Assembly (NCBI GenBank): GCA_964390005.1
Contig: CAYMGM010000001.1
Span: 129,839 to 193,838 of the forward strand
Length of the DNA stretch: 64,000 bases
Source of the DNA: an uncultured Rhodospirillaceae bacterium
GTDB lineage: Bacteria; Pseudomonadota; Alphaproteobacteria; UBA9219
Direction: 5' to 3'
The notes under the pieces were generated by a model that worked only from the letters and a program-made list of their open reading frames with translations, ran no database searches and was not told where the DNA came from. Position numbers and translations under genes: made by a program. This document shows, piece by piece, positions 16,796 through 55,927 of this stretch. How positions within the stretch are numbered: position 1 is the stretch's first letter; every line of letters begins with the position of its first letter.

Positions 16796-16935
16796 AAAAG
16801 CCAGCGTAGCGAAAAATCAGAAAAAAGCAAAATAACACGCAGGAAGGGTGGTAAAGCAAGTTACACTGTAAAGTCCAATAGGTTATAGGCGTATGATCAT
16901 AGAGGCAAAACCTTGAATGATGTCAAGATGTTGTT

Positions 16936-17991
16936 ATGGTCAATTTTGTGTCGGCGTATCATCATGCCAATTGGCACGCTTTGGGGGGTGGTTTCTTGCT
17001 GGATCAGAATAGTCTGAAGACGGATCATTTGCGTCCCATTCTGGCTCGGAAAGCTGCAGGAACGGCAGACGCTATCGATTGTCCGGTCGGCGAAACACAG
17101 ACGCTGGGGGGGTGCAAGGACGGCTTTGTTCGTTCCGAATACCACAGCTGCGGTTTTGGTTTTGGGGTTTTTTTTGTCGATGCCCTGGTGCGGGAGCCGT
17201 ATGCTTTTCAACTGCCGTTTCCAAATGCCACCAAAGCGCTTCTTTTGCACGTTGTCACCTCGGGAAAGGGGCGTCTTATTCTTGATAAGGGAATGGCGAT
17301 TCCGGGAAGCGCCGGGGATGCTGTTTTTAGCGTACCTGAAAGCGGCGGTTATGTGGTCGAGCCAGCCCATGGCGTCAGTTATAGCATGCTGGCTTCCGTT
17401 ATGTGCGTTGAACGTTTTATCACGACGTTCTCTCAACAAATGTTGCCTGCGCCGCTGAATGAATTTTTAACGGGACGGCGTTCAAATCTCATTCGTTGCA
17501 GCGCACCGTCGCATGTCATTCAGCGGTTGACAAAAGAGATGCAGGCGAATCCCTATCGGGGCCCGGTTGCAACGCTTTACCTTGAAAGCAAGATGCTCGA
17601 GCTGCTAGCCGAAGTTATGGCTCAATTCGACAGTAACCAAGAAACATCGGCGCGTGTTTTATCGTGCGAGCGCCGTCGCGCCGTTGCCGCGCGAGACGTT
17701 CTGATCGACAATTTATCCAATCCGCCTTCCGTTTCGGCTTTGGCGCAAACGGTTGGCCTTTCGCAACGACGCTTAAACTATATTTTTCGTGAATTGTACG
17801 GCGGTACGGTCTTTTCTTGTATGACACAGTGGCGGCTTGCGCGTGCGCGCGAACTTCTTGAGGAGGGATCGCTTTCCGTCAAGCAAGTGGCCTCGACAAT
17901 GGGGTATGCACACGCGAACAATTTTATCCTAGCCTTTACGCGCAATTTTGGCGTTTCGCCTGGCAAGTGCCGTAAAGAGTATGGTGGTTGA
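16936..17991 (+). CDS. AraC-family transcriptional regulator
   Basis: C-terminal double HTH (SVSALAQTVGLSQRRLNYIFRE...VKQVASTMGYAHANNFILAFTRNFGVSPGKCR). Divergent from recG. Confidence 0.8.
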   Translation: MVNFVSAYHHANWHALGGGFLLDQNSLKTDHLRPILARKAAGTADAIDCPVGETQTLGGCKDGFVRSEYHSCGFGFGVFFVDALVREPYAFQLPFPNATKALLLHVVTSGKGRLILDKGMAIPGSAGDAVFSVPESGGYVVEPAHGVSYSMLASVMCVERFITTFSQQMLPAPLNEFLTGRRSNLIRCSAPSHVIQRLTKEMQANPYRGPVATLYLESKMLELLAEVMAQFDSNQETSARVLSCERRRAVAARDVLIDNLSNPPSVSALAQTVGLSQRRLNYIFRELYGGTVFSCMTQWRLARARELLEEGSLSVKQVASTMGYAHANNFILAFTRNFGVSPGKCRKEYGG

Positions 17992-24650: not shown

Positions 24651-25901
24651 CTACTTCTTGGCATGCTCCATCATGGCGTCTGTGAAATTTGCATCTTTGA
24701 GTTTGGCCTCCGAGAAGTCGGCATAGCGAAGGTCGGCGCCTGTAAAATCCGCATACATCAGGTTTGCGCCATTGAAATTGGCGTAACGCAGATTGGCCCC
24801 TCGGAAAGAGGCGGGCAGCTTGCGCCCGTTGTCAAGCTGCAAAGCCTCAAGCCGCGCATGAGCCAAATTGGCTGAGACCATATTGCAATTGTTAAAATTG
24901 CTGGCGCGAAGATCGGCAAAGGATAGGTTGGATTTTCGGAAATCGCTGCTTTCGAAGATGGCGGCTTGAAGATTGCTGTAAGACAGATCGACGCCATAAA
25001 GAACAGCATTGCGCGCGATCATCATTGTCAGATCGACGGCTTTAAATGTCTTCAAGCCGCGCAGATCGAAACCGGATAAATCCAGTTTTTTACCTTTTTT
25101 ACCTTCGCTTGTGAGCCATTGCTGATGCATGGAAACCAGCTCTTCTGGCGAATAGTCCGTTTTCTCGATCGAATGACCCTGTGGGGTATTGAGAAGCGCG
25201 CCTTCTAAATTGACGTCTTTGACTTTCTTACCCGCCAAATCCATCAATGTCCCGGCAAGATTGGCTCCGGCAAAATTAACGCCCTGCATCGAGACGTTGC
25301 TTAGGTCGGCCCCTGTTAGGTCTGCGCCTTCAAAGTTGGCGTTTTCAAGCTTGCCTTCAGAGATTTTAACGTTTTTAAGAACGGCATCTGCAAAAATCGA
25401 GTTTTGCGTTACGGCGCTTGCCATGCGGACAGATGCCAGATTTGCGCCACTCATATCCGCGCCGCCGACGCCGTCGGCCCAGGCCGAGCCTTCGCTTGAG
25501 AAGGATAAGCCTTTTTCAGGGTCGTAAGAGGCAAAATTGCCTTCGCGTAAATCGGCTTCATGCAAATTAGCGCCGACCAGAATGGCATCTTTTAATGCGG
25601 CGCCGCGTAAATCGGCGCGGACAAGTTGCGCGTTTCGAAAATTGGCTTTGCGCAGATCGCAGGCAAAGAACAAACAATAATTCAGTGTCGATTTTTCAAA
25701 ATTAGATTCATATAAAACAGATCCTGTAAAATCGGCATGAGAGAGATCTTGGCCGTGAAAATCAAGACCGGTCATATCAAAATGAGATAAAAGCGCACGC
25801 GAACCGCCACCACGCCCTTGACGAAACAAGAGATGGTGCTCGATCAAAACATCAAGCTGAGGTTGTGTCAGCTTTTTAAGCGTTTTATTGATATCTGTCA
25901 T
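24651..25901 (-). CDS. pentapeptide-repeat protein (416 aa)
   Basis: Long runs of A(D/N)LxG/A(N/D)FxG pentapeptide repeats across most of the length (for example ADFTGADLRYADFSEAKLKDANFTDA). Confidence 0.8.
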   Translation of the reverse strand: MTDINKTLKKLTQPQLDVLIEHHLLFRQGRGGGSRALLSHFDMTGLDFHGQDLSHADFTGSVLYESNFEKSTLNYCLFFACDLRKANFRNAQLVRADLRGAALKDAILVGANLHEADLREGNFASYDPEKGLSFSSEGSAWADGVGGADMSGANLASVRMASAVTQNSIFADAVLKNVKISEGKLENANFEGADLTGADLSNVSMQGVNFAGANLAGTLMDLAGKKVKDVNLEGALLNTPQGHSIEKTDYSPEELVSMHQQWLTSEGKKGKKLDLSGFDLRGLKTFKAVDLTMMIARNAVLYGVDLSYSNLQAAIFESSDFRKSNLSFADLRASNFNNCNMVSANLAHARLEALQLDNGRKLPASFRGANLRYANFNGANLMYADFTGADLRYADFSEAKLKDANFTDAMMEHAKK

Positions 25902-29674: not shown

Positions 29675-29914
29675 AGGATCGGATGGAGGCGGTAAACCGC
29701 TATATTTGATCGCTGGGAAGGTCAAAGCCACCTTTGGGTAAGGCAGTCGTCGCATATAAAAGAACGATTGTTGGCCCCATCCTGTGCAAGCTTGTTAATA
29801 ATGTATCTTTTTGCGCCTTGTCGATAATTTTATTGTTGTGTGGGAGCCGAAATGAAGTTAGTCTTCGAATCGAATAGACCTTATTCCGAATCTTCTCAAG
29901 AAGGATGTCTTGTA

Positions 29915-30466
29915 ATGAGAATTTTAAAATTTTTAGGCATTATGACCCTTTTGATGGGGCTCTCTTCTGCCGCACAGGCTTCGACGTTAGCTTTTGATCT
30001 TTCGACAGACCCGTCGGGAAGCGGCTTGTTAGCGTCAGGCAAAGGGGCTTTGACCGACAACACGCTGACCTTGAGCTCGATGCCAAGCTACAGCCGTTTG
30101 GTTTTGACCTTCACGTTTATCCCTGCAGCTATCGGGGCAAGTGTTTCGACAGATTATAATGGAAACATTGCTGGGGTTAGCTATATGGGGCCTTCGACTC
30201 CTTACGCTTTTAAGAATACCACGTTGGACCATGGCGTCACGGGCACGCTGGAGGTTTCAAGCTCGGGGGCGGCACTTACCGTTAAAAACATGACGCATGA
30301 TCTGTATACCTTCCAGAATATGCTGGCGGTTTATTTCAGAAATTGTACAGAGGGCGTTGTCAATTATAGTTATACATTGACAGCCATTCCGCTTCCTGCC
30401 GTTTTGCCGCTGTTTGCGGTTGGCGTCTTGGGCTTGGGCGCTGCCAAGAAGCGCCGCAAAGCTTAA
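29915..30466 (+). CDS. secreted protein with a VPLPA-CTERM-type (PEP-CTERM-like) C-terminal sorting signal
   Basis: Signal peptide MRILKFLGIMTLLMGLSSAAQA. The extreme C-terminus is IPLPAVLPLFAVGVLGLGAAKKRRKA, that is, a (V/I)PLPA motif, a TM helix and a basic cluster. The ORF track starts at 29840, but the ATG at 29915 has an RBS. Confidence 0.55.
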   Translation: MRILKFLGIMTLLMGLSSAAQASTLAFDLSTDPSGSGLLASGKGALTDNTLTLSSMPSYSRLVLTFTFIPAAIGASVSTDYNGNIAGVSYMGPSTPYAFKNTTLDHGVTGTLEVSSSGAALTVKNMTHDLYTFQNMLAVYFRNCTEGVVNYSYTLTAIPLPAVLPLFAVGVLGLGAAKKRRKA

Positions 30467-30482
30467 GGCTTTGGGAATTAAA

Positions 30483-30516
30483 AAAAGGGGGCCACCGGCC
30501 CCCTTTTTTGTTTTTA
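30483..30516. terminator. bidirectional rho-independent terminator between convergent genes
   Basis: AAAAGGGGGCC-ACCG-GCCCCCTTTTTTGTTTTT. A-run on one side and T-run on the other. Confidence 0.7.
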
Positions 30517-30524: not shown

Positions 30525-31748
30525 TTAACGTCGCGGGAAAAGCCGCGCATCCTCTGGCGTCGGATCGGCGGGGATCTGCGCGCGCGCGTGGCAGTCTTGC
30601 GCCTCGGTTAAAAGGTTCTCAAGAAGGTCCGTGAACAGAACAGGTTTCTCGGCCGCTTCCCACAGGAAAAAGCCAAACGAGCCAGGGCATGGGTTGGCTT
30701 CGTTAAACCAGACATCGCCTGTCACTTCGTTGCAGAGAAAATCAAGGCGCGGGACGCCTGTGCCGCCTGTCGTTTCAAACACCGTTGCCGCCCAAGCGCG
30801 GATATGCGCCTCCATTTCTGGGGCGATTTGCGGGTTGATTTCGCGCGTCAGCGATAACATCCCTTCGCTGGGTTTGGCACCGGGGGTTTTAGATCCGCCC
30901 ATTTTGGGGCTGCCATCCTTTGTGCCGCCTGCGCAATATTTCGTGCGGAAGTCTAAAAGCTCGGTCGAGCGCTTGGGCTTTTCAATCGCCGAGGTTTGGA
31001 TAAGGCCGTTGATGCGGCGCACGGCCACGTTATATTCGACCATGTTCTCGACAAAAGGCTCGAGCAGGGCCGTGTCGTCGAAACGGAAAATACCCGGCAA
31101 GACGTCGGCAACTTCTTGAAAATTATCGACACGTGCCACACCGATGCTGCTTCCCAAATGGGCTGGTTTGATGCAGCAAGGAAAGGCGACATCGCCCATC
31201 AGTGCTTCCAATTCGGCGGCGGTCAGCATAAGCCCCTCTAGCGGGCGTTTGATTTCAAGGAAAGGAAGTTGCGGAACGTCTGTTGCGGCGATCATGCGCT
31301 TGGTCGCGGCTTTGTCCATCAAAACCGCCGAGGCCAGTTGGCGCATGCCGGTATAGGGGACGTTGGCCGTCTCGAACAGGCCCTGAATGCGGCCATCTTC
31401 GCCGACAAGCCCATGAAAAGCCAGAAAAGCGATATCAAAGGGGATCAGGCGCGTTTTGCCGAAAACCCCTTGGGGCATCGTGCGCAGGCAAGGCGTCTCG
31501 GACGGGCCGATATGAAGCGTCACCTGCGTACAGGCCCGCATCGCCTCGCCATTCGGAATATAGAAAGAGCGGTCGCGCAAAGCCTCGCCAATCAGCCAAG
31601 CGCCATTGGGGGCGATATACAAGGGCTGGGCGTCGTAGCGGGCCGGGTCCAAAGCGTCCAAGGCTTGAAGCCCCGTGATGATGCTGACATCATGTTCGGG
31701 CGAACGTCCGCCGAAAAGGACAAGGACTCTTGTTTTTTGACCGGTCAT
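30525..31748 (-). CDS. D-alanine--D-alanine ligase family ATP-grasp enzyme (divergent, with a long omega-loop insertion)
   Basis: N-terminal VLVLFGGRSPEHDVS, a central ATP-grasp region, and the C-terminal RLDFLCNEVTGDVWFNEANPCPG motif, all typical of Ddl. An extra ~35-aa insertion (KYCAGGTKDGSPKMGGSKTPGAKPSEGM) sits before the C-terminal motif. The start is placed at MTGQKTRVLV (31748), whereas the ORF track gives 31826. Confidence 0.8.
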   Translation of the reverse strand: MTGQKTRVLVLFGGRSPEHDVSIITGLQALDALDPARYDAQPLYIAPNGAWLIGEALRDRSFYIPNGEAMRACTQVTLHIGPSETPCLRTMPQGVFGKTRLIPFDIAFLAFHGLVGEDGRIQGLFETANVPYTGMRQLASAVLMDKAATKRMIAATDVPQLPFLEIKRPLEGLMLTAAELEALMGDVAFPCCIKPAHLGSSIGVARVDNFQEVADVLPGIFRFDDTALLEPFVENMVEYNVAVRRINGLIQTSAIEKPKRSTELLDFRTKYCAGGTKDGSPKMGGSKTPGAKPSEGMLSLTREINPQIAPEMEAHIRAWAATVFETTGGTGVPRLDFLCNEVTGDVWFNEANPCPGSFGFFLWEAAEKPVLFTDLLENLLTEAQDCHARAQIPADPTPEDARLFPRR

Positions 31749-31868
31749 GTGAATAATCCGCTTGATGAGACAAAGCCTTGTTGCGCTTTGTCGGTCGAGA
31801 AAAATCAGGGGCCAGCATGCCCCCAATGGCAGAAAATTGTCAAGTCAGCCCATAGGTAAGGCTTTTCG

Positions 31869-32663
31869 TTGCAGCAAAATCCTGTGCATAACGGGCCCCC
31901 GGGCCTCATCGCTCATTCTTTTGACGGCGTGCCTTTGGGGCAATCGCCGTTTCTGATCGTTTGGGGGCATGGCTGGGGACATAATCGGTCTGTCTTTGCG
32001 CCGTTCGCCGCTTCTTTGTCGCGGCAGGCTTCGCATCTGTTGATCGATTTTCCCGGCTTTGGCGCGTCGCCCATGCCGCCGGAGGTTTGGGATACCGCCG
32101 CTTATGCCGATGCTGTGGCCTCTTTGCTCGCGCCGCTGCGCGAACAGGTGCCATTTATCGTGTGGGTGGGGCATTCCTTTGGCTGCCGCGTCGGCATTCA
32201 ACTGGCGGCGCGTCATCCCAAGCTGGTTGATGCGATGGCTTTGATGGCCGGGGCGGGGTTGCCGCGCCATCGCTCGCTTGCGCAGCGTCTTCGTATCAAA
32301 GGCCGCATTCTGTTCTTTAAACTTTGTAAGAAATTGGCCCCGCTGGTCGGGATCAGCGTCGAGGATTTGCGCAACAAATTTGGCAGCGCCGATTATCGTC
32401 AAGCTGGCGCGATGCGCCCGATTTTTTTGAAAACGATCAGCGAAGATCTAACGCCGCAGGCGCGTCAAGTCGCGTGCCCGACGCTTTTACTGTACGGCGA
32501 GCAAGACACCGAAACGCCGCCCGAGATTGGGCAACGTTTGGCCACCTTGATAAAGGGCAGTGAGCTGACCCTTTTGCCGGGGCTGGATCACTACACAATT
32601 TTAGATCGCGGGCGGGCTCTCGTTTTGAAACGCCTGACCGCTTTGATGGAGCGCCTGTCATGA
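31869..32663 (+). CDS. alpha/beta-hydrolase fold protein
   Basis: HGWGHN oxyanion region and a GHSFG nucleophile elbow. 264 aa. TTG start, with an alternative GTG at 31884. Its stop overlaps the start of the next gene (ATGA). Confidence 0.7.
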   Translation: MQQNPVHNGPPGLIAHSFDGVPLGQSPFLIVWGHGWGHNRSVFAPFAASLSRQASHLLIDFPGFGASPMPPEVWDTAAYADAVASLLAPLREQVPFIVWVGHSFGCRVGIQLAARHPKLVDAMALMAGAGLPRHRSLAQRLRIKGRILFFKLCKKLAPLVGISVEDLRNKFGSADYRQAGAMRPIFLKTISEDLTPQARQVACPTLLLYGEQDTETPPEIGQRLATLIKGSELTLLPGLDHYTILDRGRALVLKRLTALMERLS

Positions 32664-34261
32664 CTTCTTTTGGCACGTTGTTGTCGTTGGCTTTCTTTTT
32701 GTATTTTTTAAGCCGTCGCTTGCCGCGTCTTTTGCATATTTTTCAGCAAGAGGAATATGACGGCGCGCGTTTTCTGGCGTGGATTTTGCGCACCTTGGCG
32801 TTCGATCGCCGCGTTTCGGCGCTTTTGCTGGTGGCCGGTGTGGTGGGGGCGCTTTCGCCCGGCGATGTCAAAGCTTATTTGCCTGCCGTTGTGCTGGGGC
32901 TTTCGGCGCGGTACGAACCTGATCCCCGCCAAAGCGCCAAAAAGAAACTGGCGATGACGGCGCGCGCGTCGCGCATTTATTATGTTTCTTTGATTTTGGC
33001 CGGTTTGGCCGCTTGGGGCGGGCTGGCGCTGGGGCACAGTTTTGGCGCAGTGGTCGTGATGCAGCTTTTGCCGCTGACCCTTGTGATCGGCAATGGGCTG
33101 CTCGCGCCCTATGAAACCATGCTGCAAGCCCGTATTCGCCGCCAAGCGATGCAGCATTTGCAGGAAATAGCGCCGCGCGTCGTGGGCATTACGGGGTCTT
33201 TTGGTAAGACGTCGGTCAAACATATTCTGGGCCATGTGTTGACGCTGAACGCGCCTACGCTTTTTACGCCGGGCAGCGTCAATACGTTGATGGGAATCTC
33301 GCGCGTGATCCGCGAAAATCTGCGCAAAGGCTGTAAGTTTTTCCTCGTTGAAATGGGGGCCTATGGCGAAGGCTCGATTGCGCGTTTGTGCGGGTTGACG
33401 CCGCCTTCGGCTGGTATTGTCACGGCTTTGGGCGCGGCGCATTACGAACGGTTTGGCTCGCTGGACGCCGTGGCGCATGCCAAGTTCGAATTAGCCGACG
33501 CTGTTTTAAAGGCCCAAGACGGTTTCGTTGTCGTCCATGAACAAGTTTTGCAGCAGCCCTATGCGCGCGACTATGTCGCCGCGCACCGCGCGCAATTTGT
33601 CGTTTGCGGTGTCGAGGCCGATGCCGATTTGCGTTATGAAGCGCCGCTTCAGACTCCAAACGGTCTTGAGGTCGCGGTGGCGTGGCAAGGACAAAACTAC
33701 ACCCTTTTTGCCCCGCTTTATGGGGTGCAGCATGGCGGGAATATGGCGCTGGCCTTCGCTTGCGCGGCGAAGCTTGGCATCGCGCCCGATCGCATTGTGG
33801 CCGCTTTGCGCAGTACGCCGCAAATCACGCATCGTTTAGAGGTCAAGAATCTGAACGAGCCATCGGTAATGATTGATGATGCCTATAATTCAAACCCGGC
33901 TGGTTTTCAGGCGGCGCTGGGCATTTTGGACATGCTGGGGCAGCATAAAAAAGCCCGCCGCGTTTTAGTGACACCGGGCGTGACCGAGCTTGGCGTTCAA
34001 CATGACGCTGTTCACAAAACCTTGGGGGAAGAGGCGGCGGCGCGGACGGATATTGCGCTGGTTGTCCGGCCCGATGTTTTGAAGTCCTTTATCGAAGGCT
34101 ATGAAAGCGCTAGCGGCACTGGAAAAGTCGTGCCTGTCGCCGATTTGACAGCGGCGCGGGCGTGGCTTGCGGCCCACCCGGCGGCAGCGCCGTTTACAGG
34201 CGATGTCGTTTTGTTCGAAAACGATTTGCCGGATGTTCTTGAGCGCCGTTTGAGCCTTTAA
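32660..34261 (+). CDS. membrane-anchored Mur ligase family protein (MurF-like)
   Basis: An N-terminal ~170 aa with about 4 predicted TM helices is followed by the Mur ligase P-loop GITGSFGKTSVKHIL, a central domain, and the C-terminal DDAYNSNP motif as in MurF. 533 aa. Confidence 0.75.
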   Translation: MTSFGTLLSLAFFLYFLSRRLPRLLHIFQQEEYDGARFLAWILRTLAFDRRVSALLLVAGVVGALSPGDVKAYLPAVVLGLSARYEPDPRQSAKKKLAMTARASRIYYVSLILAGLAAWGGLALGHSFGAVVVMQLLPLTLVIGNGLLAPYETMLQARIRRQAMQHLQEIAPRVVGITGSFGKTSVKHILGHVLTLNAPTLFTPGSVNTLMGISRVIRENLRKGCKFFLVEMGAYGEGSIARLCGLTPPSAGIVTALGAAHYERFGSLDAVAHAKFELADAVLKAQDGFVVVHEQVLQQPYARDYVAAHRAQFVVCGVEADADLRYEAPLQTPNGLEVAVAWQGQNYTLFAPLYGVQHGGNMALAFACAAKLGIAPDRIVAALRSTPQITHRLEVKNLNEPSVMIDDAYNSNPAGFQAALGILDMLGQHKKARRVLVTPGVTELGVQHDAVHKTLGEEAAARTDIALVVRPDVLKSFIEGYESASGTGKVVPVADLTAARAWLAAHPAAAPFTGDVVLFENDLPDVLERRLSL

Positions 34262-34437
34262 ACATCGCGCCAAGCATTGTGCATCGCAGCGTAAAAGAGG
34301 CCATAATTTTGCTGCGCCGCAACATGGTTAATATTTCTTGTAAGGCCGTTTTTCTTGTGCTTTTCTGAGCGCTTCGGAGCTTCTTGTTCAAGAAGAGGAT
34401 CCGTTTTGTTTGTCTCAAAGAAAGAACGCAACCGATT

Positions 34438-34689
34438 ATGTGTGCTTTGCAACAAGAAAAACTTCGCGCCTGTTTCACAGAAGCCTTAGTTTTGCCCGCC
34501 GAGACGGATTTAGAAACGCTGCGCTATCAATCCATACCGGCGTGGGATTCGATTGGGCACATGCGTTTGATCGCGGCGATCGAAGGCGCGTTTAACATCA
34601 TGCTGACAACGGACCAGATTTTGGATCTCAGTTCGTATGCCAAAGCGTGCGAGATTTTGGGGGCTCATGGTGTCGCTAGCGAGTCCTGA
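34438..34689 (+). CDS. acyl carrier protein
   Basis: 84 aa from MCALQQ. The phosphopantetheine-attachment context is WDSIGHMRLIAAIEGAFNI (DSI/DSL motif with the Ser). Confidence 0.7.
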   Translation: MCALQQEKLRACFTEALVLPAETDLETLRYQSIPAWDSIGHMRLIAAIEGAFNIMLTTDQILDLSSYAKACEILGAHGVASES

Positions 34690-35425
34690 TCCATCTGACG
34701 TGCGTCCCGTCGCCGTCGTCACTGGCGCTTCGCGCGGGATTGGCGCGGCCATCGCGCGGTGCTTGGCGCGTGATGGCTATCGCTTGGCGCTGACCGCACG
34801 CGGACATGACGCGCTCATCGCTTTGCAAAACGATCTGGGAAGCGAAGACGTTTTTGTCATGGCGGGCGATGTTGCCGATACGGCTTTTGTGCAAAGCTTT
34901 TATCAAGCGGTGCAAACCCGCTTTGGCCGGATTGATGTGTTGGTGGCCAATGCCGGACAATTGGCCAATGCGCCGCTTGGCCTGATTGCGCCCGAGATGG
35001 CGGACAAGGCTTTTGATGTCAACGTGCTTGGCGTTCTTTCTCACATGCAGATGGCCGCGCGTTTTATGCGCCGTACGAAACAAGGCGCGATGATTTTGAT
35101 GGGCAGTATTATCGGCACGCAGGGCGGCATTGGCCAGACCGTTTACGCGGCGACCAAAGCCGCTTTGGTTGGCATGGCGCTTTCCGCGGTGAAAGAGCTG
35201 GGGCCGGACGGGATCACCGTCAATGTCATTGCGCCCGGCATGATCGATACCGACATGTTGGCCGATTTGTCTGACGCGAAGATTGCGGCGCGTCTTGAGC
35301 AGGTGGCCCTGCGCCGCGTCGGCCAACCGCAGGAAGTTGCGGATCTCGTCTCTTTTCTGGCGTCTGACAAGGCGCGCTATATCACAGGCCAAGTCATTGG
35401 CATTGACGGAGGAATGGTGATTTAA
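34667..35425 (+). CDS. SDR-family oxidoreductase (3-oxoacyl-ACP reductase-like)
   Basis: TGASRGIG cofactor motif, an NAG motif and YAATKAAL (catalytic YxxxK). About 252 aa. It overlaps the ACP stop. Confidence 0.8.
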   Translation: MVSLASPDPSDVRPVAVVTGASRGIGAAIARCLARDGYRLALTARGHDALIALQNDLGSEDVFVMAGDVADTAFVQSFYQAVQTRFGRIDVLVANAGQLANAPLGLIAPEMADKAFDVNVLGVLSHMQMAARFMRRTKQGAMILMGSIIGTQGGIGQTVYAATKAALVGMALSAVKELGPDGITVNVIAPGMIDTDMLADLSDAKIAARLEQVALRRVGQPQEVADLVSFLASDKARYITGQVIGIDGGMVI

Positions 35426-36835
35426 ATGATCGTTTTCACACTGCCTTTTCTGCCCAATACCGTGTTGCATCGCGCGCTTGTTCCCGACGATACACCTGCC
35501 TTGTTCGATGACAAATCGGTCGCGTGGACGACCTATGGCGAGGTGCGTGAGAAAATCGACGCCATGCAGGTTTGTTTTGCCGCGCTTGAAAAAGATCTGA
35601 TCTTCTGCGTCGCGCCGCGAACGGTCGATGGCGCTGTGGCCTATATGGGGGCAACGGCTTCAGGCCATGCTGTCGCGCTGGTCGATCCTTCTATGACGCA
35701 TTTGCGCGGCGTTGTTGCCGCGTACCGTCCGCGCTGGATCATGGCACCGCTGGATCATGCGTATCAAGGCTATGGCAAGGTCGAAGATTTTCCTTTGACG
35801 GGGATGGCGCTTTGGAAACGCTTTGGCGAAGCGGGCGGCTTTATCCATCCGCGCCTTTATTTGATTTTGCTGACATCGGGATCGACCGGCAGCAGCAAAG
35901 GCGTGCGCCTTTCTTATGCAAATGTGGCCAGCAACACGTCGGCGGTGATCGAAAGCCTGTCGATGGAGGGCGGCGTTTGCGCGGTGGGGCATTTGCCTTT
36001 GTCTTATTCCTTTGGGCTCTCGGTTCTTAACACGGCGATGGCTGTGGGCGGGCGCGTTTTGCTGACAGAAGAGGGGATGATGAGCCCCGCTTTCTGGTCG
36101 CGTGCCCGCGCGCAAGAAGCCAATCTGTTCCCCGGCGTTCCGTATCATTTTGAGATGCTGCTGCGCCTGTCGCTGGAAGGGCTGAAGATTCCGTCGCTGA
36201 AAACCTTTTTGCAGGCTGGCGGTAAAATGCCGGTTCCCATGACGCAAAAAGTTCTTGAGGCGGTCATGGCGCGGCAAGGCGGGCTTTACATCATGTATGG
36301 CCAAACAGAAGCCAGCCCGCGCATTTCATCGTTTCCGCTTCACTTGCATCCAGAAAAAATCGGCTCATCAGGTATCCCCATGTCGGGCGGCCATGTCGAG
36401 ATCGTCGATAACGAGATTATCTATCACGGACCGAACGTGATGATGGGCTATGCGATCACGCGCGAAGATTTGTGCAAAGGCGACGGCATGCATGGGCGCT
36501 TGCCGACGGGCGATCACGGCTCTGTGGATGCTGACGGTTATTTGACCGTTTTGGGCCGCGAAAAACGCATTGCCAAGCTTTACGGTCAGCGCGTGGCGTT
36601 GGACGATCTGGAAAAGTTTGCGGCAGCATTGGCCCCCGTCGTTGCGATTGAGCGCGATCAGCAAATCTTGCTGATTACCACGGCGGCAGAAGAAAGCCTG
36701 CGCGACCGGATCAAAGCCTTGGTGATGAGCGAAACGGGCTTGCCGCCGACATGGCTTGAGGTGCGCTCGGTTGCCGATATTCCGCACCAGCCGAACGGCA
36801 AGGTCGATTACCAGCGCCTCCGAGCCGAAGCGTGA
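35426..36835 (+). CDS. AMP-dependent synthetase/ligase (acyl-CoA or acyl-ACP synthetase-like)
   Basis: AMP-binding motif LTSGSTGSSKGV and a YGQTEA motif. 469 aa. It starts 1 nt after the SDR stop. Confidence 0.8.
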   Translation: MIVFTLPFLPNTVLHRALVPDDTPALFDDKSVAWTTYGEVREKIDAMQVCFAALEKDLIFCVAPRTVDGAVAYMGATASGHAVALVDPSMTHLRGVVAAYRPRWIMAPLDHAYQGYGKVEDFPLTGMALWKRFGEAGGFIHPRLYLILLTSGSTGSSKGVRLSYANVASNTSAVIESLSMEGGVCAVGHLPLSYSFGLSVLNTAMAVGGRVLLTEEGMMSPAFWSRARAQEANLFPGVPYHFEMLLRLSLEGLKIPSLKTFLQAGGKMPVPMTQKVLEAVMARQGGLYIMYGQTEASPRISSFPLHLHPEKIGSSGIPMSGGHVEIVDNEIIYHGPNVMMGYAITREDLCKGDGMHGRLPTGDHGSVDADGYLTVLGREKRIAKLYGQRVALDDLEKFAAALAPVVAIERDQQILLITTAAEESLRDRIKALVMSETGLPPTWLEVRSVADIPHQPNGKVDYQRLRAEA

Positions 36836-37929
36836 GCCAGCAAGAGGGAACAGCGCTCGACGCTTTGTTCGCGCTTCCCTATGCCAGCCTTGCCCAAGCG
36901 GAAAAAGAGCGGCAACTGTTTCCGCTGCTGCGCGATGGGCTTGCCTATCACCGCGCGGCTTGCCCTGCTTTTGATCGGATTGTCGCGCGCGCTTTTCCGG
37001 ACGAGCCTGTGGGGCTCGATACCTTGCCCTATCTTCCGATCTCGCTGTTCAAGGACCGGCGTTTGCTTAGCGTGCCCGCGACGGAGGTGCGCGTGGCGGT
37101 TCAGTCCAGCGGCACCAGCGCCAGCGGGCTTAGTCAGGTTGCTTTAACGGCGGATGATGCGCGGCGTACCGCGCGGTCGCTCGCCTCGATCTTAAAGACG
37201 GTTTTAGGGCCTGTGCGCTTGCCCATGCTGTTCATCGACACGCCAGATGTTCTGAAAGGTGGGGGCGCTGTCGGGGCGCGTGCGGCGGCGATTTTGGGTT
37301 TAATGCCTTATGGCCGCGATCACCGTTTTGTCCTGAACGAAGCTTGGGAATTGGATGAAAATGCGCTGCTTGATTTTCTTGCCAAGAACGGGAGTAAGCC
37401 TTTTGTGATTTATGGTTTTACTTTTCTTGTTTGGCAGGCGCTGGCGCCTTTTTGCGCATCGCACCGCGTGGATCTTTCGAACGCGCTTTTGCTGCATAGC
37501 GGCGGGTGGAAAAAACTGCAAAGCCTTGCCGTTGATAATGCCGCTTTTCGCCATGCTTTTGCCGCGCAGGCTGGGCTGACACACATTGTCAATTTTTACG
37601 GCATGGCTGAAATGCCGGGTGTTGTTTTTCTGGAAAACGCAGACGGTCTTTTTTATCCGCCAAGCTTTGCCGACGTTTTGATCCGCGATCCGGTGACGCT
37701 TGCGCCGCTGCCTGTGGGGCAAGCGGGGCTGGTGCAGTGGATCAATCCACTGCCGCGCAGCTATCCCGGCCTTTCCGTTTTGACCGAAGACCTTGGCATT
37801 GTTGAAACCATCGATAGCAATGTCAGTGGTTGGAAAGGCCAAGCGCTTCGTCTGATCGGGCGCGCCCCAAAGGCTGAAATGCGCGGCTGCAGCGATGTGT
37901 TGGCGCAAAAAATAAGCGGGGAGGTCTGA
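36832..37929 (+). CDS. LuxE-family acyl-protein synthetase
   Basis: VQSSGTSASG, LHSGGWKKL and VLTEDLG correspond to the FTSSGTNG, ITGGGWK and IVTDDVG motifs of Vibrio LuxE. 365 aa. 4-bp overlap with the upstream gene. Confidence 0.7.
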   Translation: MSQQEGTALDALFALPYASLAQAEKERQLFPLLRDGLAYHRAACPAFDRIVARAFPDEPVGLDTLPYLPISLFKDRRLLSVPATEVRVAVQSSGTSASGLSQVALTADDARRTARSLASILKTVLGPVRLPMLFIDTPDVLKGGGAVGARAAAILGLMPYGRDHRFVLNEAWELDENALLDFLAKNGSKPFVIYGFTFLVWQALAPFCASHRVDLSNALLLHSGGWKKLQSLAVDNAAFRHAFAAQAGLTHIVNFYGMAEMPGVVFLENADGLFYPPSFADVLIRDPVTLAPLPVGQAGLVQWINPLPRSYPGLSVLTEDLGIVETIDSNVSGWKGQALRLIGRAPKAEMRGCSDVLAQKISGEV

Positions 37930-39128
37930 TGATCCAGTTTCATTTTGCCGCCACGCCACTAAAGGATTTAGAAGATCTTCGTAACGCCTGCCTTGCCGCG
38001 AAAGCGCAGCCTTTGGCTTTTGCCGACCCTAGCGTGCAGGCCTTTGCCCGCGCTTTGTCGGCGGGGTTGCTACAGGATCCTTTGGCCAAAGCTTTTCCGG
38101 CTTGCACGGCCTTTGGGTTTTGGCTGCGGGCCGCTGCGCTGGATGATTTAACGGCGCGTGTGCAAGCGGGATCGGTTGGACGCGCGCCTGCCGGGGCTGT
38201 CTTTTTAATGCCCCCTTCCAACGTGACAACGCTTTTTGCTTACACGGCGCTTTTATCACTTTTATGCGGCAATGTGACGCTGGTTCGCCTGCCGCAGACG
38301 CCCAGCGCGGCGCAAGATTATCTGCTGAGCCATTTTCTACGGGCGCTGGACCAAGCCCCGGATGCATTACGGCAGAAGCTGTTTCTTTTAGGTTATGGTC
38401 ACGATGACGCGATCACCACGGCCTTATCGGCGCTTGCAGACAGGCGTTTTGTCTGGGGGGCTGATGAAACAATTGCGCATATCGGCTCGTTGCCTTTGCC
38501 AGCGGGGGCGCATCATATCGGTTTTGGCGATCGCTTTTCCGCTGCGACCATCGGCGCAGAGGGTTATTTGGCTTTAGACGATCAGGCCAAAGATCATCTG
38601 GCGCGTCTGATGGCCGCCGATATTTACAGCTTTGATCAATTGGCTTGTTCGTCGCCGCGTGCGCTGTTTTGGATTGGCAGCGCCGATACGGTGCAAAAAG
38701 CGCGCGCCGATTATTACCCGCGTCTGACCGCAGCGGCTGAAGCGCGCGGCTATGCGCTTGACGCGGCTCAAGCCATTGCGCGCCGCCGCGCGGCTTTTCT
38801 GGCGCTTCATGATCTTCAAACGCAGTTCTATTGGGGGGCGTCAAAGGCGTTGGCCGTGATCGGCTTGGCGACAGCTGAAGAATTAGAGCCTTTTAAAACA
38901 GTATCTTATGGTTTTGGCCTTTTGCTTGATGCCTGTTGCCCCTCGCTTGAGGCTGTTCTATCAATAGCCAGCGCGCGCGATCAAACGCTAAGCTATGCTT
39001 GCCTGCCTGCGGTGCCGACCGAGCAAACAGCGTATGATCGAATGGTCCCGGTTGGCCGCGCGCTAGATTTTGACGTGAGATGGGACCGCATAGATTTGAT
39101 CGAGGCGATGACACGCCAGCAAGGATGA
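37929..39128 (+). CDS. LuxC-family acyl-CoA reductase-like protein
   Basis: 399 aa. It is the immediate partner of the LuxE-like gene, with a Cys-containing DQLACSSP motif in the position expected for a LuxC catalytic Cys. The family call rests partly on context. Confidence 0.5.
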   Translation: MIQFHFAATPLKDLEDLRNACLAAKAQPLAFADPSVQAFARALSAGLLQDPLAKAFPACTAFGFWLRAAALDDLTARVQAGSVGRAPAGAVFLMPPSNVTTLFAYTALLSLLCGNVTLVRLPQTPSAAQDYLLSHFLRALDQAPDALRQKLFLLGYGHDDAITTALSALADRRFVWGADETIAHIGSLPLPAGAHHIGFGDRFSAATIGAEGYLALDDQAKDHLARLMAADIYSFDQLACSSPRALFWIGSADTVQKARADYYPRLTAAAEARGYALDAAQAIARRRAAFLALHDLQTQFYWGASKALAVIGLATAEELEPFKTVSYGFGLLLDACCPSLEAVLSIASARDQTLSYACLPAVPTEQTAYDRMVPVGRALDFDVRWDRIDLIEAMTRQQG

Positions 39129-39134
39129 AGCAAG

Positions 39135-39776
39135 ATGTCAAAACTAATCATTGTAGGCGCGGGGGGCTTTGGCCTTGAGGTCGCCGCCTATGCCGAGGAC
39201 GCGCGCGCGGCACAAGCCGCGCAGCCCGAAATCATCGGCTTCTGCGATGACACAAAACCCAAAGGTGCGCAGCATGCGGGCTATCCCGTCATCGCGAACA
39301 CGGATGATCCCATTGATCCCACCGCGCTTTATATCTTGGCGGTTGGCTTTCCGGCTGCGCGGCGCGCGTTGGCTGAAAAACTGGCGGCTAAAGGGGCCCA
39401 GTTTCATACGCTGATCCACCCGCAAAGCTATGTCGCGCGGACGGCACGCCTTGCGCCGGGATGTATAGTTGTTCCGTTCGCGACGGTGGGGCCGATGGCC
39501 GTTTTGGGTCCGCACACAATGCTGAATTACCATGCGGTCTTTGGCCACGAAGCGCAGGCTGGTGATTTTTGCGTTTTATGCCCGTATGCCTGCGTCCACG
39601 GCACGGCTGTTTTAGAAGACGATGTCTTTATTGGCAGCGGCGGTTATGTCACGCGCGGCTTGCGTATTGGGCAAGGCTCGAAAATTGCCGCAAACGCTGT
39701 CGTTTATAATGATATCCCGCCGGGCGCGTTGGCGCTTGGCAATCCCGCCGTTTGCAGGAAGGAGCCGAACGCATGA
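39135..39776 (+). CDS. NeuD/PglD-family hexapeptide-repeat N-acyltransferase
   Basis: An N-terminal Rossmann-like IIVGAGGFGLEV is followed by left-handed beta-helix hexapeptide repeats (VFIGSGGYV, IGQGSKIAANAVV). 213 aa. Confidence 0.75.
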   Translation: MSKLIIVGAGGFGLEVAAYAEDARAAQAAQPEIIGFCDDTKPKGAQHAGYPVIANTDDPIDPTALYILAVGFPAARRALAEKLAAKGAQFHTLIHPQSYVARTARLAPGCIVVPFATVGPMAVLGPHTMLNYHAVFGHEAQAGDFCVLCPYACVHGTAVLEDDVFIGSGGYVTRGLRIGQGSKIAANAVVYNDIPPGALALGNPAVCRKEPNA

Positions 39777-45930: not shown

Positions 45931-46178
45931 GAGACCCCTCCCTAGCTTTGTTACAGTTACCTATTATCCACCATTTCTCTTACGAAATGAATAAGAGAAC
46001 ATAAGTCATGCCTAGCCATTTGTAAAATAATGATATTTTTCAATATCAAAACACACATTTGTTGGTAAAAGCTGCGTGAATCAGGTTTAAAGCCCATGAT
46101 TCCTTGCGAAAAAAGGCGTTTTGTGCCAAAAAGTTGCTTGAAAAGGCTCCAGCAAAAAACAAAGAAAAAGGGAATTTC

Positions 46179-47285
46179 ATGAAAGTCGCCGTCGTTCACG
46201 AATGGCTGACCACAAAAGCGGGATCAGAATCTGTCATTGAACAAATACTGACCTTGTATCCGGAAGCCGATTTGTTTGTTTTAGTTGATTTTTTGCCCGA
46301 AGCGGATCGCGCTTTTCTGGCTGGCCACAGGATCAAAACATCTTTCATCCAGAACTTACCTTTTGCGCACAAAAAATACCGTTCTTATTTGCCGCTGATG
46401 CCGCTGGCGGTTGAGCAGTTTGATTTGTCGGGCTACGACCTTGTTATCAGCTCGTCGCATGCGGTGGCCAAAGGGGTGCTGACAGGCCCCGATCAAGTTC
46501 ATATTTCCTATGTTCACAGTCCCATTCGCTATGCGTGGGATCTTCAACACATCTATTTGCGCGAGTCAGGGCTTACCAAAGGCCTGCGCGGTATCTTGGC
46601 TAAATTGATTTTACATTATATGCGCCTGTGGGATTGCCGTACCGCTTGTGGCGTCGATCAGTTTGTCGCGAACTCAAACTACATCGCGCGGCGGATTAAA
46701 AAGGTCTATGGCAGGTCGGCGCAAGTTGTTTATCCGCCGGTCCATTTAGATAAGTATATTGCTGGCACGCAGCCGCGCGAAGATTTTTATTTGGCGGTGT
46801 CGCGCTTTGTGCCTTACAAAAAGATGTCGTTGATCGTCGAAGCTTTCACGCGCTTGCCTGATCGGCGCTTGATCGTCATCGGCGACGGCCCAGATTTGAA
46901 AAGCGCAAAAGAGCAAGCGAGCGCAAACGTGACCTTTCTTGGCTACCAAGCGCAAGATGTTGTGATCGATCACATGCAACGCGCCAAAGCCTTTGTCTTT
47001 GCGGCCGAAGAAGATTTTGGCATCGCCCCGGTCGAGGCGCAAGGCTGCGGCACGCCCGTGATAGCCTTTGGCCGCGGCGGCGCAACCGAAACGGTCGTTG
47101 ATGGTCAAACAGGCGTGTTGTTTCCCGAGCAAACGCCTGAATCCCTGATCGAGGCGATTAAAAAGTTTGAGGTCCTCGCGCCGCAACTCAAGGCGACAAC
47201 CATCCGTGAAAATGCCGAGCGTTTCAGCGTCGCACGTTTCAAGGAAGGCATTCAAAAGATCGTCGACGAAGCGATGAAAGCGTAA
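46179..47285 (+). CDS. glycosyltransferase family 4
   Basis: GT-B fold. The C-terminal EDFGIAPVEAQGCGTPVIA motif (E-x7-E). The start is placed at MKVAVVHEWL, whereas the ORF track gives 46104. Confidence 0.8.
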   Translation: MKVAVVHEWLTTKAGSESVIEQILTLYPEADLFVLVDFLPEADRAFLAGHRIKTSFIQNLPFAHKKYRSYLPLMPLAVEQFDLSGYDLVISSSHAVAKGVLTGPDQVHISYVHSPIRYAWDLQHIYLRESGLTKGLRGILAKLILHYMRLWDCRTACGVDQFVANSNYIARRIKKVYGRSAQVVYPPVHLDKYIAGTQPREDFYLAVSRFVPYKKMSLIVEAFTRLPDRRLIVIGDGPDLKSAKEQASANVTFLGYQAQDVVIDHMQRAKAFVFAAEEDFGIAPVEAQGCGTPVIAFGRGGATETVVDGQTGVLFPEQTPESLIEAIKKFEVLAPQLKATTIRENAERFSVARFKEGIQKIVDEAMKA

Positions 47286-47294
47286 CGGCCCCTT

Positions 47295-48380
47295 ATGCGT
47301 CTTCCCCTTTACATCAATGCGCGTTTTCTTGGCAAACCGATCACGGGCACGCAGCGTTTTGCGCATGAGATTATAGCTGCCCTCGATAAAAAAATAGGTG
47401 AGGGCGCACAAGTTTTCTCGAAGGTCGTGTTACTGGCGCCTTCTGGGACGCCGCAGCCGACGGGGCTTGAGCCTATTGGCTTTCAAACATGCGGCCATCT
47501 ACAAGGCCATTTGTGGGAGCAATGGGATTTGTGGCGTGCCAGCCATGACGGCCTGCTGCTCAGCCTGACGAATAGCGGCCCCGTGTGCCACCCGCGGCAT
47601 TTGGTCGTCATTCATGATGCGTTGGTTTACCGGTTGCCCGAAAACTACGCTTGGGCCTATCGCTTGTTTCACCAGAATCTTGGGCGTCTTTTGGCGCGTC
47701 GCGCGCGCGTTGGCACGGTCTCGGCCTTTTCGGCCTCTGAACTAGCCGCCGTCTTTCACGGCCAATCATCGGACTACCCCGTTTTTTACGATGGCTTCGA
47801 TCACATTCTGCGCCTGACGGAAGAGCCCGCCATCCTTGATCGCCTGAACCTGCGCGGTAAACGCTTTTTCCTTTTTGTCGGCTCGCACGTTCCCAACAAA
47901 AACCTAGCCCGCGCGATCCAAGCGTTTATGGCGCTGAAAGACGACACGCTTTCATTTGTGATTGTCGGCTCAACACAATCAAAGGTTTTTGCCGCGACGC
48001 AACTTCAACTACCACCGACGGTCTTGATGCCGGGGCGCTTGACGGATGGCGAGATCGTCGCGCTTTATCGTCATGCTTATGCGCTGGTTTTTCCAAGCTT
48101 GTACGAAGGTTTTGGTATTCCGCCGTTGGAAGCGTTGACGTTGGGCTGCCCCGTGATTGCCTCGCGCATCGCGCCGGTCCAAGAAGTGTGCGGCGAGGCT
48201 GCCAAATATTTTGATCCGTTAGATACCGCGGATATGGCGGCGCAACTGCGCGCGAGTCTTAATGATCCCGCCTGGCGCACAGCCTGTGTGGCAAAGGGTA
48301 AGCAGCGCTTGCCAAACTTCACATGGCGCGCAAGCGCCGAGAAAATATGGCAAGAATTGCTATTCATGAAGAAGGATTGA
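47295..48380 (+). CDS. glycosyltransferase family 4
   Basis: EGFGIPPLEALTLGCPVIAS, the GT4 E-x7-E motif. 361 aa. Confidence 0.8.
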   Translation: MRLPLYINARFLGKPITGTQRFAHEIIAALDKKIGEGAQVFSKVVLLAPSGTPQPTGLEPIGFQTCGHLQGHLWEQWDLWRASHDGLLLSLTNSGPVCHPRHLVVIHDALVYRLPENYAWAYRLFHQNLGRLLARRARVGTVSAFSASELAAVFHGQSSDYPVFYDGFDHILRLTEEPAILDRLNLRGKRFFLFVGSHVPNKNLARAIQAFMALKDDTLSFVIVGSTQSKVFAATQLQLPPTVLMPGRLTDGEIVALYRHAYALVFPSLYEGFGIPPLEALTLGCPVIASRIAPVQEVCGEAAKYFDPLDTADMAAQLRASLNDPAWRTACVAKGKQRLPNFTWRASAEKIWQELLFMKKD

Positions 48381-48385
48381 TGGTG

Positions 48386-49435
48386 ATGAAAAAAGAATTC
48401 ACTGGTGCCCGGTATGGTTTTATTGATGCCATTCGCGGGATAGCGGCCTTGCTCGTGATGCTACAACACTCGCTTTATTCCAGTGGCTTGCTTGGTGACA
48501 TCCATGGCCCTTTAACAGGCTTTATTCCAACGATGCTTGAGTTGGGCGAGACGGGGGTCGTTGCCTTTTTTCTTGTCTCAGGGTTTGTTATTCCGCTCAG
48601 TTTAGAAAAAACGGCAAACTTTAAAATGTTCTGGATACACCGTATTTTGCGTATTTATCCGCTGTATCTGTGCGTCTATTTTGTCAGTTTGGTTTTGCAC
48701 CTTGGAACTTTTGATATCTCAGGCTTTTCAGCGCACGTCGTCAATTTTCTATCGCATCTATTAATGATCCAGGAATATGTCAAACAACCTAATCTTGTCG
48801 GCGGGTCGTGGACGCTTTCGATTGAAATGATCTGGTATATCGGTCTTTCAGTTTTATTCTTGTTGGCCTTGAATAAAAAGCCGCGTTTGCTTGTCGCTTT
48901 AGCCGTTGCCGCTTCATTTTTGGCATGTGTCGTTTGCGCGTTTGGGCCTCACCTTCCTATGGGAAGACTTTCAATGCTGGTTTGTTGTGTGTTGGGTTTC
49001 GTTTGTTACCGTTATGGGAAAAGCGATTTATCCAGCCGCGAATTTTGCTTTTTGGCAGGGCTTTTAATCATTGCGATTGTTACAAACCTGATGACTGGAT
49101 TTTTGTTGTTTCCATCGGCATATCCCACAGCCAGTTTTGCAATGGTTCGAGGTTCTTGGTCTTTAGGTATTTTGATTTTTTTTATACCTTTTCTCTTCCG
49201 TCAATCGTCCATCTGGGACAACAGCCTTTTGTCTTTCCTTGGGAAAATAAGTTATTCGATCTATTTGGGGCACGGTGTTGTCTTGCACCTGCTTGAAGAT
49301 AGCCCGCTAACAGGGTGGTGGTTTATTGCCGCTGTTTTTGTATCGACAATTCTTGTTGCGAGTCTGTCCTACCGCTATATTGAGCAACCGCCCATTCAAT
49401 TCGGTAAAAAACTGAACTCTTTAAGGCAACTCTAG
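48386..49435 (+). CDS. acyltransferase family 3 membrane O-acyltransferase
   Basis: About 10 TM helices. The N-terminal FIDAIRGIAALLVMLQH motif is typical of acyltransferase-3 (OatA/OafA-like). Lower GC than the flanking genes. Confidence 0.75.
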   Translation: MKKEFTGARYGFIDAIRGIAALLVMLQHSLYSSGLLGDIHGPLTGFIPTMLELGETGVVAFFLVSGFVIPLSLEKTANFKMFWIHRILRIYPLYLCVYFVSLVLHLGTFDISGFSAHVVNFLSHLLMIQEYVKQPNLVGGSWTLSIEMIWYIGLSVLFLLALNKKPRLLVALAVAASFLACVVCAFGPHLPMGRLSMLVCCVLGFVCYRYGKSDLSSREFCFLAGLLIIAIVTNLMTGFLLFPSAYPTASFAMVRGSWSLGILIFFIPFLFRQSSIWDNSLLSFLGKISYSIYLGHGVVLHLLEDSPLTGWWFIAAVFVSTILVASLSYRYIEQPPIQFGKKLNSLRQL

Positions 49436-49556
49436 GTAAAATCGGAGTCTATGACGTCGGCAGGGCGCGGCCATAGCCAAGCGCGGTTACGTGGCGTTCG
49501 CTTTATAAATAAGGAACGATGACGGATATTTTTCTTCGATCGTTTTTTCTATATCT

Positions 49557-55920: not shown

Positions 55921-55927
55921 CTTTCAC

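Follow-up and report, generated by a model that had tools for sequence, protein, structure and literature searches.

The locus

The stretch of DNA analysed here (64,000 nucleotides, called the window) belongs to an uncultured Rhodospirillaceae bacterium (GenBank assembly GCA_964390005.1, contig CAYMGM010000001.1, positions 129,839 to 193,838 of the forward strand). The element in question is a group of three genes encoding a D-Ala-D-Ala ligase (Ddl)-like enzyme with ATP-grasp architecture, an alpha/beta serine hydrolase, and a MurF-type ligase with a predicted N-terminal membrane domain, referred to below as membrane MurF. The following features were assigned in the window:

30525..31748, minus strand: Ddl-like ATP-grasp ligase gene, 407 aa (Pfam and NCBIfam matches)
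31749..31868: divergent intergenic spacer of 120 bp between the Ddl-like gene and the hydrolase gene (sequence reading)
31869..32663, plus strand: alpha/beta serine hydrolase gene, 264 aa (Abhydrolase_6/_1/Hydrolase_4)
32660-34261, plus strand: MurF-type ligase gene, whole, 533 aa (Pfam and NCBIfam)
32660..33154, plus strand: N-terminal membrane domain of the ligase, residues 1-165 (hydropathy, positive-inside count, AlphaFold helices)
33155..34261, plus strand: linker helix, MurF-type ATP-binding middle domain, and C-terminal domain of the ligase, residues 166-533 (profile and Foldseek)
30481..30509: GC-rich hairpin with a perfect 13-bp stem (7/13 pairs GC) and T and A runs on both sides (terminator scan)

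A first-pass annotation made from the letters alone had pointed out the Ddl-type gene at 30525-31748 (-) and the MurF-like gene at 32660-34261 (+), and the Pfam domains found in both show that they are real. It had also called the two genes adjacent, which has to be corrected, as the 264-aa hydrolase gene at 31869-32663 (+) lies between them and had been missed. The stop codon of the hydrolase gene overlaps the start codon of the ligase gene (ATGA), and the two are predicted to be translationally coupled. The Ddl-like gene and the hydrolase gene diverge across the 120-bp spacer, where promoters are presumed to lie; a consensus scan found no sigma-70-like site in 31749..31868. On the left, the hairpin at 30481-30509 is a bidirectional terminator, which forms the boundary between the module and a PEP-CTERM-type gene.

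Distribution and conservation of the three genes

The Ddl-like gene, the hydrolase gene, and the membrane MurF gene form a conserved and widespread three-gene module. Locus counts, here and below, refer to 83 loci from at least eight phyla, drawn from Alphaproteobacteria, Acidobacteriota, Bdellovibrionota, Planctomycetota, Chlamydiales, Chloroflexi, Bacteroidota, and Firmicutes. The hydrolase gene lies directly upstream of the membrane MurF gene in about 79 of the 83, and clustering of open reading frames (ORFs) grouped the hydrolase in 71 loci. A Ddl-like orthologue with 50-68% identity to the window copy was located within 5 kb in about 68 of the 83 loci, in a divergent, co-directional, or downstream position. 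ORF clustering across the loci gave lineage-specific neighbours only and no fourth conserved gene, and the genes following the Ddl-like gene in distant phyla are mutually unrelated (C39-like, DUF1579, SRAP, radical SAM, and cation diffusion facilitator (CDF) transporter).

At least 568 carriers were counted in a scan of species-representative genomes. Among Alphaproteobacteria these include Hyphomicrobiales (for example Labrys and Blastochloris), Kordiimonas, Micavibrio, and metagenome-assembled genomes (MAGs) of Rickettsiales; other carriers include Acidobacteriota, Bdellovibrionota, Planctomycetota, Desulfovibrio, Omnitrophota, Chlamydiales, Chloroflexi, Prevotella, Alistipes, and a clostridial MAG. 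Thousands of full-length members of the ligase family exist at about 50% identity, all of which are labelled MurF by annotation pipelines. No description of a membrane MurF module was found in the literature searched (MurF variants, membrane MurF, dcw/Micavibrio), the coverage of which is incomplete; the module is thus widespread yet undescribed in that literature, which is absence of evidence only.

In Dichotomicrobium thermohalophilum (L003:5032-8306 (-)), the Ddl-like gene is followed on the same strand by genes for a PilS-type histidine kinase and a response regulator, which hints at regulation of the module in some hosts.

The MurF-type ligase

Pfam assigned Mur_ligase_M (PF08245) to residues 177-369 of the ligase (E 4e-27) and Mur_ligase_C (PF02875) to residues 391-518; these were the only two domains found, and the UDP-MurNAc (uridine diphosphate-N-acetylmuramic acid)-binding domain Mur_ligase (PF01225) is absent. 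The best NCBIfam model was murF TIGR01143 with 176.3 bits, which does not reach the curated cut-off of 288.6, and two MurF equivalog models likewise stayed below theirs (113 vs 551 bits and 92 vs 544 bits). The murE, murD, and murC models gave about 50 bits each and thus lie more than 120 bits behind murF. A profile of 118 homologues matched E. coli MurF (1GG4) at E 8e-42, with query residues 169-472 lying on MurF residues 94-391, which covers the middle and C-terminal domains of MurF only.

Within this alignment, the ligase motifs coincide with those of 1GG4: the P-loop TGSxGKTS, E-x-GA, AHxE-F, AK-E, DD-YN-NP, and ELG...H. Residues T178-G-S-F-G-K-T/S185, E231-M-G-A, A260-H261, and K275 are invariant in the 118 sequences and align to E. 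coli MurF, as do D406-D407-A-Y-N410-S-N412-P, E443-L-G445, and H452 in the C-terminal part of the ligase. The AlphaFold model of the ligase is of high confidence (predicted local distance difference test, pLDDT, 92.7; predicted template modelling score, pTM, 0.90), and its top Foldseek matches were the MurF structures 4QF5, 4ZIY, and 1GG4. Judged by motifs and fold, the MurF-type catalytic apparatus is clearly intact. In a small neighbour-joining tree, the membrane MurF family formed a clade of its own beside canonical MurF (71% bootstrap) with a sister relation at 32%, and this weakly suggests that the family stands outside the canonical MurF clade and next to it.

For residues 1-165, no Pfam family match was obtained. 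Hydropathy averaged over the 118 homologues revealed five hydrophobic cores at about residues 3-14, 55-64, 73-82, 108-121, and 129-146. Lysine and arginine are concentrated in the loops 20-51, 85-105, and 151-175 (5-7.5 each) and are close to zero in the other loops. Together with the positive-inside rule, this predicts a five-helix topology with the N-terminus outside and the C-terminus inside, and the same five helices are seen in the AlphaFold model. The first-pass annotation had proposed a polytopic N-terminal anchor of about four helices that is foreign to canonical MurF. Its polytopic nature was confirmed, the number of helices is five according to hydropathy and AlphaFold, and the anchor is indeed foreign to canonical MurF, in that PF01225 is replaced and the alignment to 1GG4 only starts at MurF residue 94. 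The five-helix domain, rigidly attached to the rest of the ligase, stands in place of the UDP-binding domain of MurF.

Invariant residues of the membrane domain include R20, Q30, Y33, W41, D49, K94, K95, T100, R102, A103, P138, and E152, and nearly invariant are H26, Q29, E86, D88, and R105. All of the latter, and R20, Q30, Y33, W41, D49, K94, K95, T100, and R102 of the former, are housed in two cytoplasmic loops. When 1.84 billion proteins were searched with a profile of the membrane domain, 1194 cluster representatives matched at E<=1e-3. Among the best 150 of these 1194, nearly all matches of 490-634 aa have the domain at the N-terminus, the shorter ones look fragmentary, and no other protein architecture with the domain was present. 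Because the 490-634-aa matches carry it N-terminally and the shorter ones resemble fragments, the domain seems exclusive to the membrane MurF family.

The Ddl-like ligase

The 407-aa protein contains both Dala_Dala_lig_N (E 9e-28) and Dala_Dala_lig_C (E 5e-26) by Pfam. The best NCBIfam models are those of D-Ala-D-Ala ligase, which scored below their curated cut-offs (206.1 vs 262 and 203.4 vs 245.65 bits). Besides these, the protein matched only Van ligase models, at 68-130 bits vs cut-offs of 495-775. The Ddl motifs GGxSxEH (GGRSPEHDVS), HGxxGEDG, GSSxG (GSSIGV), KY, RxDF (RLDF), and NExNxxPG (NEANPCPG) are all kept.

Solved DdlA-type enzymes aligned in two blocks with a break at residues 273-304, which corresponds to an insertion in the omega loop. 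This insertion of 15-30 Gly/Lys-rich residues follows straight after the Lys-Tyr motif, ends in a conserved SEGMxSLxRExxP, and is specific to the family, which additionally has a deletion of four residues after the PG motif. By these features the protein can be placed in a subfamily of long DdlA-type enzymes that carry the insertion behind the Lys-Tyr of the omega loop. The Lys-Tyr motif itself is identical in copies embedded in the dcw (division and cell wall) cluster and in copies associated with an M15 peptidase gene. In Ddl enzymes, the omega loop and the loop after PG shape the site for the second substrate.

The serine hydrolase

The HGWG oxyanion motif, Ser103 (in GHSxG), Asp213, and His241 of the hydrolase are kept in all homologues of two sets (n=71 and n=59), and this conservation suggests an active serine enzyme. 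No signal peptide is visible in the hydrolase, which is predicted to be cytoplasmic. Its nearest named or solved relatives are generic esterases and lipases only: the best NCBIfam match was the EstV lipase family (104 bits vs a cut-off of 300), and PlaF (6I8W) matched at E 3e-11.

An apparent hydrolase-ligase fusion in Labrys (L022, a 727-aa ORF) was rejected; the two genes are in different frames, and the open frame is an artefact of GC-rich DNA.

Peptidoglycan genes around the module in relatives

MurF and Ddl are regarded as universal, soluble, and essential enzymes and are antibiotic targets (D-cycloserine for Ddl, with MurF inhibitors in development). In Micavibrio-like Alphaproteobacteria, the module is located inside the dcw cluster (about 14 loci, and also L084-L087, for which called genes were available). 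The order there is ftsI-murE-X-mraY-murD-ftsW-murG-murC-murB-(membrane MurF, hydrolase, other strand)-Ddl-like-ftsQ-ftsA-ftsZ-lpxC, where the slot of the housekeeping ddl is taken by the Ddl-like gene. The murF slot, X, is occupied either by a protein of 158-160 aa or by a MurF derivative of 419-437 aa.

The longer derivative, a pseudo-MurF (e.g. L084:20271-21548 (-), P0388-P0404), was found in at least 14 clusters with 36-78% identity. Domain 1 is kept, and the P-loop, the NNxWGVP segment, the segments with the catalytic Glu and His, DDxYNxNP, and GDMxELG are deleted or replaced. It may act as a substrate-presenting or scaffolding partner and is a natural case of an essential enzyme decaying to a conserved pseudoenzyme. 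The shorter protein between murE and mraY (L085:19101-19577 (-), L087:19051-19527 (-), and L036 ~16923-17405 (-)) is derived from the C-terminal domain of MurF; a search with the 158-aa form gave no family match. As it is well conserved between genomes, it may remain functional.

The nearest lineages with an intact canonical MurF (L088 and L089) have a textbook dcw cluster with a short Ddl of 328-335 aa, and neither a hydrolase nor a membrane MurF gene is located between murB and ddl in these two. Module and canonical MurF/Ddl are thus complementary in their occurrence, and this pattern is the strongest evidence that the module may supply both activities. Since the dcw murF is dead or truncated, the membrane MurF family looks like the working MurF in Micavibrio-like genomes, and the module appears to have replaced canonical MurF and Ddl in this clade, as seen at the level of the dcw locus. 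The first-pass annotation had also considered that the protein might turn out to be an ordinary housekeeping MurF, grouping within that clade and being the only murF of its genome. At the dcw locus, the Micavibrio-like genomes agree with the second part of this idea, whereas the tree, with a clade beside canonical MurF, does not agree with the first.

Other carriers connect the module to the same pathway. In Chloroflexi, operons with the order murA-hydrolase-membrane MurF-Ddl-like occur. A Bdellovibrionales MAG (L006:2434-9548 (+)) has, in one operon, genes for an 810-aa tandem Ddl-Ddl fusion, a canonical MurF, a VanX-like M15 protein, the hydrolase, and the membrane MurF, followed downstream by genes for a helix-turn-helix (HTH) regulator and PBP1A. 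Canonical and membrane MurF types can therefore coexist, as both are encoded in this operon. Overall, the recurring contexts of the module were the dcw cluster, murA, canonical ddl/murF, and PBP1A, and never polymer genes.

In two gut alphaproteobacterial MAGs (L059 and L064), the dcw cluster reads mraZ-rsmH-ftsL-ftsI-mraY-murD, and neither murE nor murF separates ftsI from mraY. The hydrolase-ligase pair is found upstream of mraZ in both, at about 1.3 kb in L064 and about 1.7 kb in L059.

Comparison with MurF, MurT/GatD, and Ddl

Membrane MurF resembles MurF (TIGR01143; 1GG4, 4QF5, and 4CVK) in its middle and C-terminal domains, its catalytic motifs, its best sequence and fold match, its pairing with a Ddl, and its dcw site in relatives. 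It differs from MurF in that the PF01225 domain is exchanged for the family-specific five-helix membrane domain, that the GDM preceding ELG is TPG and the C-terminal KGS(R) is ENDLPD, that a serine hydrolase gene nearly always precedes it, and that it scores below the curated cut-off.

A precedent for a Mur-type ligase without the UDP-binding domain is MurT, which has MurF as its nearest structural relative and acts on lipid II (PMC6113224); its authors argue that a UDP-binding domain would clash with the membrane (PMC6113224). MurT/GatD shares with the module not only the missing domain but also an obligatory partner enzyme encoded in the adjacent gene (PMC6113224). However, MurT is soluble, has a zinc ribbon and a DUF1727 C-terminal domain, and amidates D-Glu with a glutaminase as partner, whereas the partner here is an alpha/beta hydrolase. 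The MurT model gave only 24.9 bits on the ligase vs a cut-off of 800, and DUF1727 was not found by Pfam.

The Ddl-like protein corresponds to DdlA-type Ddl (PRK01966; 7U56, 2I80, and 3I12) in both domains and in all catalytic motifs including the omega-loop Lys-Tyr, and is distinguished from it by the Gly/Lys-rich insertion and the four-residue deletion described above.

Proposed function and alternative explanations

The three genes probably encode an alternative D-Ala-D-Ala branch in the synthesis of peptidoglycan precursors, located on the inner side of the cytoplasmic membrane. The Ddl-like enzyme would make D-Ala-D-Ala or a close analogue. Membrane MurF would then phosphorylate the free carboxylate of the stem tripeptide (MurNAc-L-Ala-D-Glu-meso-diaminopimelate, mDAP) with ATP and join the dipeptide to it, a substrate suggested by the genomic context. 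The five-helix domain would put the acceptor site at the membrane surface, where the conserved basic loops could hold a diphosphate. As a best guess, the hydrolase might free or edit the C-terminus of the acceptor, for example by cutting a tetrapeptide, or a terminus that is not wanted, back to the tripeptide. Outside the Micavibrio-like lineages, the module probably runs beside canonical MurF and Ddl.

Two acceptors are about equally likely, UDP-MurNAc-tripeptide passed over next to MraY and undecaprenyl-diphosphate-linked tripeptide. For the lipid-linked form speaks that membrane helices replace the UDP-binding domain, which MurT lacks as well. In addition, the diphosphate in MurF complexes sits where the N-terminal domain meets the middle domain. 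In favour of the UDP-linked form, many Micavibrio-like genomes keep a dead MurF whose UDP-binding domain 1 is intact and could present the nucleotide substrate, while others have only the 158-aa remnant. The first-pass annotation had suggested the addition of a D-Ala-D-X dipeptide to an acceptor embedded in the membrane, and this is compatible with the present results if the acceptor is a lipid-linked peptidoglycan precursor.

A more far-reaching version, for which the case is tentative, is that the stem peptide receives or exchanges its last two residues only after the membrane step. Membrane MurF would act on lipid I/II-tripeptide and bind the lipid diphosphate, instead of UDP, through its membrane domain and basic loops, and the hydrolase would regenerate the tripeptide acceptor by stripping off an existing terminus. 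If true, this would be a re-ordered or terminus-swapping pathway, and soluble MurF and ordinary Ddl would be dispensable in Micavibrio-like bacteria.

Several points weigh against an alternative D-Ala-D-Ala branch. All curated MurF and Ddl models score under their cut-offs, and it is precisely in the two loops forming the second-substrate site that the Ddl-like enzyme is changed. The hydrolase has no role in the textbook pathway, which does not account for its invariable presence. A gene for a VanX-like M15 D-Ala-D-Ala dipeptidase is inserted in about 17 loci, which would be futile if the product of the module were plain D-Ala-D-Ala. In the window, the module adjoins no cell-wall gene and is flanked by the PEP-CTERM-type gene on one side and an acyl-sugar cluster on the other. 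The evidence from Micavibrio-like bacteria is limited to the dcw locus, so that a second canonical murF or ddl might be present elsewhere in these genomes. Moreover, all functional statements rest on comparative genomics.

The M15 gene and the altered loops would fit with a replacement of the peptide terminus as in Van clusters (VanH/VanA/VanX/VanY). The Ddl-like enzyme would make D-Ala-D-X (X being, for example, D-Ser, D-lactate, or Gly), the VanX-like protein would destroy D-Ala-D-Ala, the hydrolase would strip termini, and membrane MurF would attach the new dipeptide, this being the sole route in Micavibrio-like bacteria. Some relatives do join a Ddl-family ligase, a VanX-like M15 protein, a further hydrolase, and sometimes a two-component system nearby. 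The M15 proteins, encoded with the ligase in one operon, have the zinc motifs SxHxxGxAxD and ExxH, and the canonical Ddl/MurF pair beside the module in L006 suggests that the two have different substrates. Regulators also accompany some modules (the histidine kinase and response regulator in L003 and the HTH protein in L006). However, the omega-loop Lys-Tyr, typical of D-Ala-D-Ala ligases, is kept in all contexts, and the ligase is nearer to Ddl than to VanA, VanC, or VanG, with Ddl models beating these by 75-135 bits. ORF clustering revealed no conserved VanH-like or racemase-like supplier of D-X nearby, the module lacks VanH and VanT, and no VanX, VanH, VanT, or M15 gene is present in the window. 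Carriers are mostly Gram-negative, where glycopeptide pressure is not obvious, and Van clusters themselves are without the dedicated membrane MurF that the module has. A Van-like function is thus unlikely. Less probable still is that the dipeptide is joined to a membrane molecule other than peptidoglycan (an aminolipid, a lipid-linked glycan, or a protein C-terminus), with the hydrolase as a turnover enzyme as in aminoacyl-phosphatidylglycerol systems; this corresponds to the wider idea behind the first-pass annotation. The missing UDP-binding domain, the lipases and esterases (EstV family, PlaF) as closest named relatives of the hydrolase, and the position of the window module beside envelope-polysaccharide and acyl-sugar genes would agree with it, but none of these window neighbours recurs beside the module in the 83 loci, where the recurring contexts are peptidoglycan genes. 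Catalytic MurF was also lost at the very place where the module joins the dcw cluster, which is hard to explain in any other way than by a role in peptidoglycan synthesis.

The first-pass annotation had likened the gene pair to a disassembled cyanophycin synthetase. A polymerase resembling those of cyanophycin or polyglutamate would add units repeatedly and export the product through the membrane domain, and the hydrolase could be its depolymerase. PgsB/CapB is a Mur-type ligase with a membrane anchor, and CphA unites an ATP-grasp domain with a Mur-like one; both, like membrane MurF, are Mur-type ligases outside the canonical soluble pathway. The resemblance ends there. On the ligase, cyanophycin synthetase TIGR02068 gave 15.2 bits vs a cut-off of 850 and was far behind murF (176 bits), no PgsB/CapB model was among the NCBIfam matches at E<=0.01, and the closest sequences and folds are MurF. 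The ATP-grasp partner is not of the CphA type but a Ddl with all Ddl motifs, and Ddl with MurF is the ordinary pairing of peptidoglycan synthesis, in agreement with the dcw and murA contexts. ORF clustering also detected no conserved genes for small membrane partners or for PgsC-like, PgsA-like, or cyanophycinase-like proteins nearby. The analogy was therefore abandoned, and a polymerase is very improbable. A role in anti-phage defence was likewise rejected, as PADLOC returned no match for any of the three module proteins.

With an alternative D-Ala-D-Ala branch as the preferred reading, at least 568 species-level genomes carry a membrane-integral MurF together with a Ddl of its own and a dedicated hydrolase, a set that appears able to take over from the canonical pair. 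If so, the order or location of the last cytoplasmic steps of precursor synthesis would not be fixed, automatic 'MurF' annotations would mask a separate enzyme class, and some bacteria may have a route of their own for bypassing or editing the D-Ala-D-Ala terminus.

Surroundings of the module in the window

To the left of the hairpin, at 29840-30466 (+), lies the gene for a secreted 208-aa protein with a weak PEP-CTERM-type C-terminus. Further to the left, a 416-aa protein (24651-25901 (-)) consists nearly entirely of pentapeptide-like repeats (A[DN]Lxx, identified by eye).

On the right, six co-directional genes at 34384-39776 (+) encode an acyl carrier protein (ACP)-like protein, a FabG-type short-chain dehydrogenase/reductase (SDR), an AMP-dependent ligase, LuxE-like and LuxC-like proteins, and a NeuD/PglB-type hexapeptide N-acyltransferase, the last of which scored 167 bits and thereby above its cut-off. 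These genes resemble routes to amino sugars bearing an unusual N-acyl group, for instance RfbK-O of Vibrio cholerae O1. That they form a single operon with the module was considered and rejected, as none of them was found near the module in the 83 other loci. A polysaccharide biosynthesis cluster follows at 46104-58612, with three family 4 (GT4) and two family 2 (GT2) glycosyltransferases, an Acyl_transf_3 protein, a Wzx-type flippase, and a pyruvyl transferase; its GC content is about 0.44-0.49 vs 0.55-0.58 nearby.

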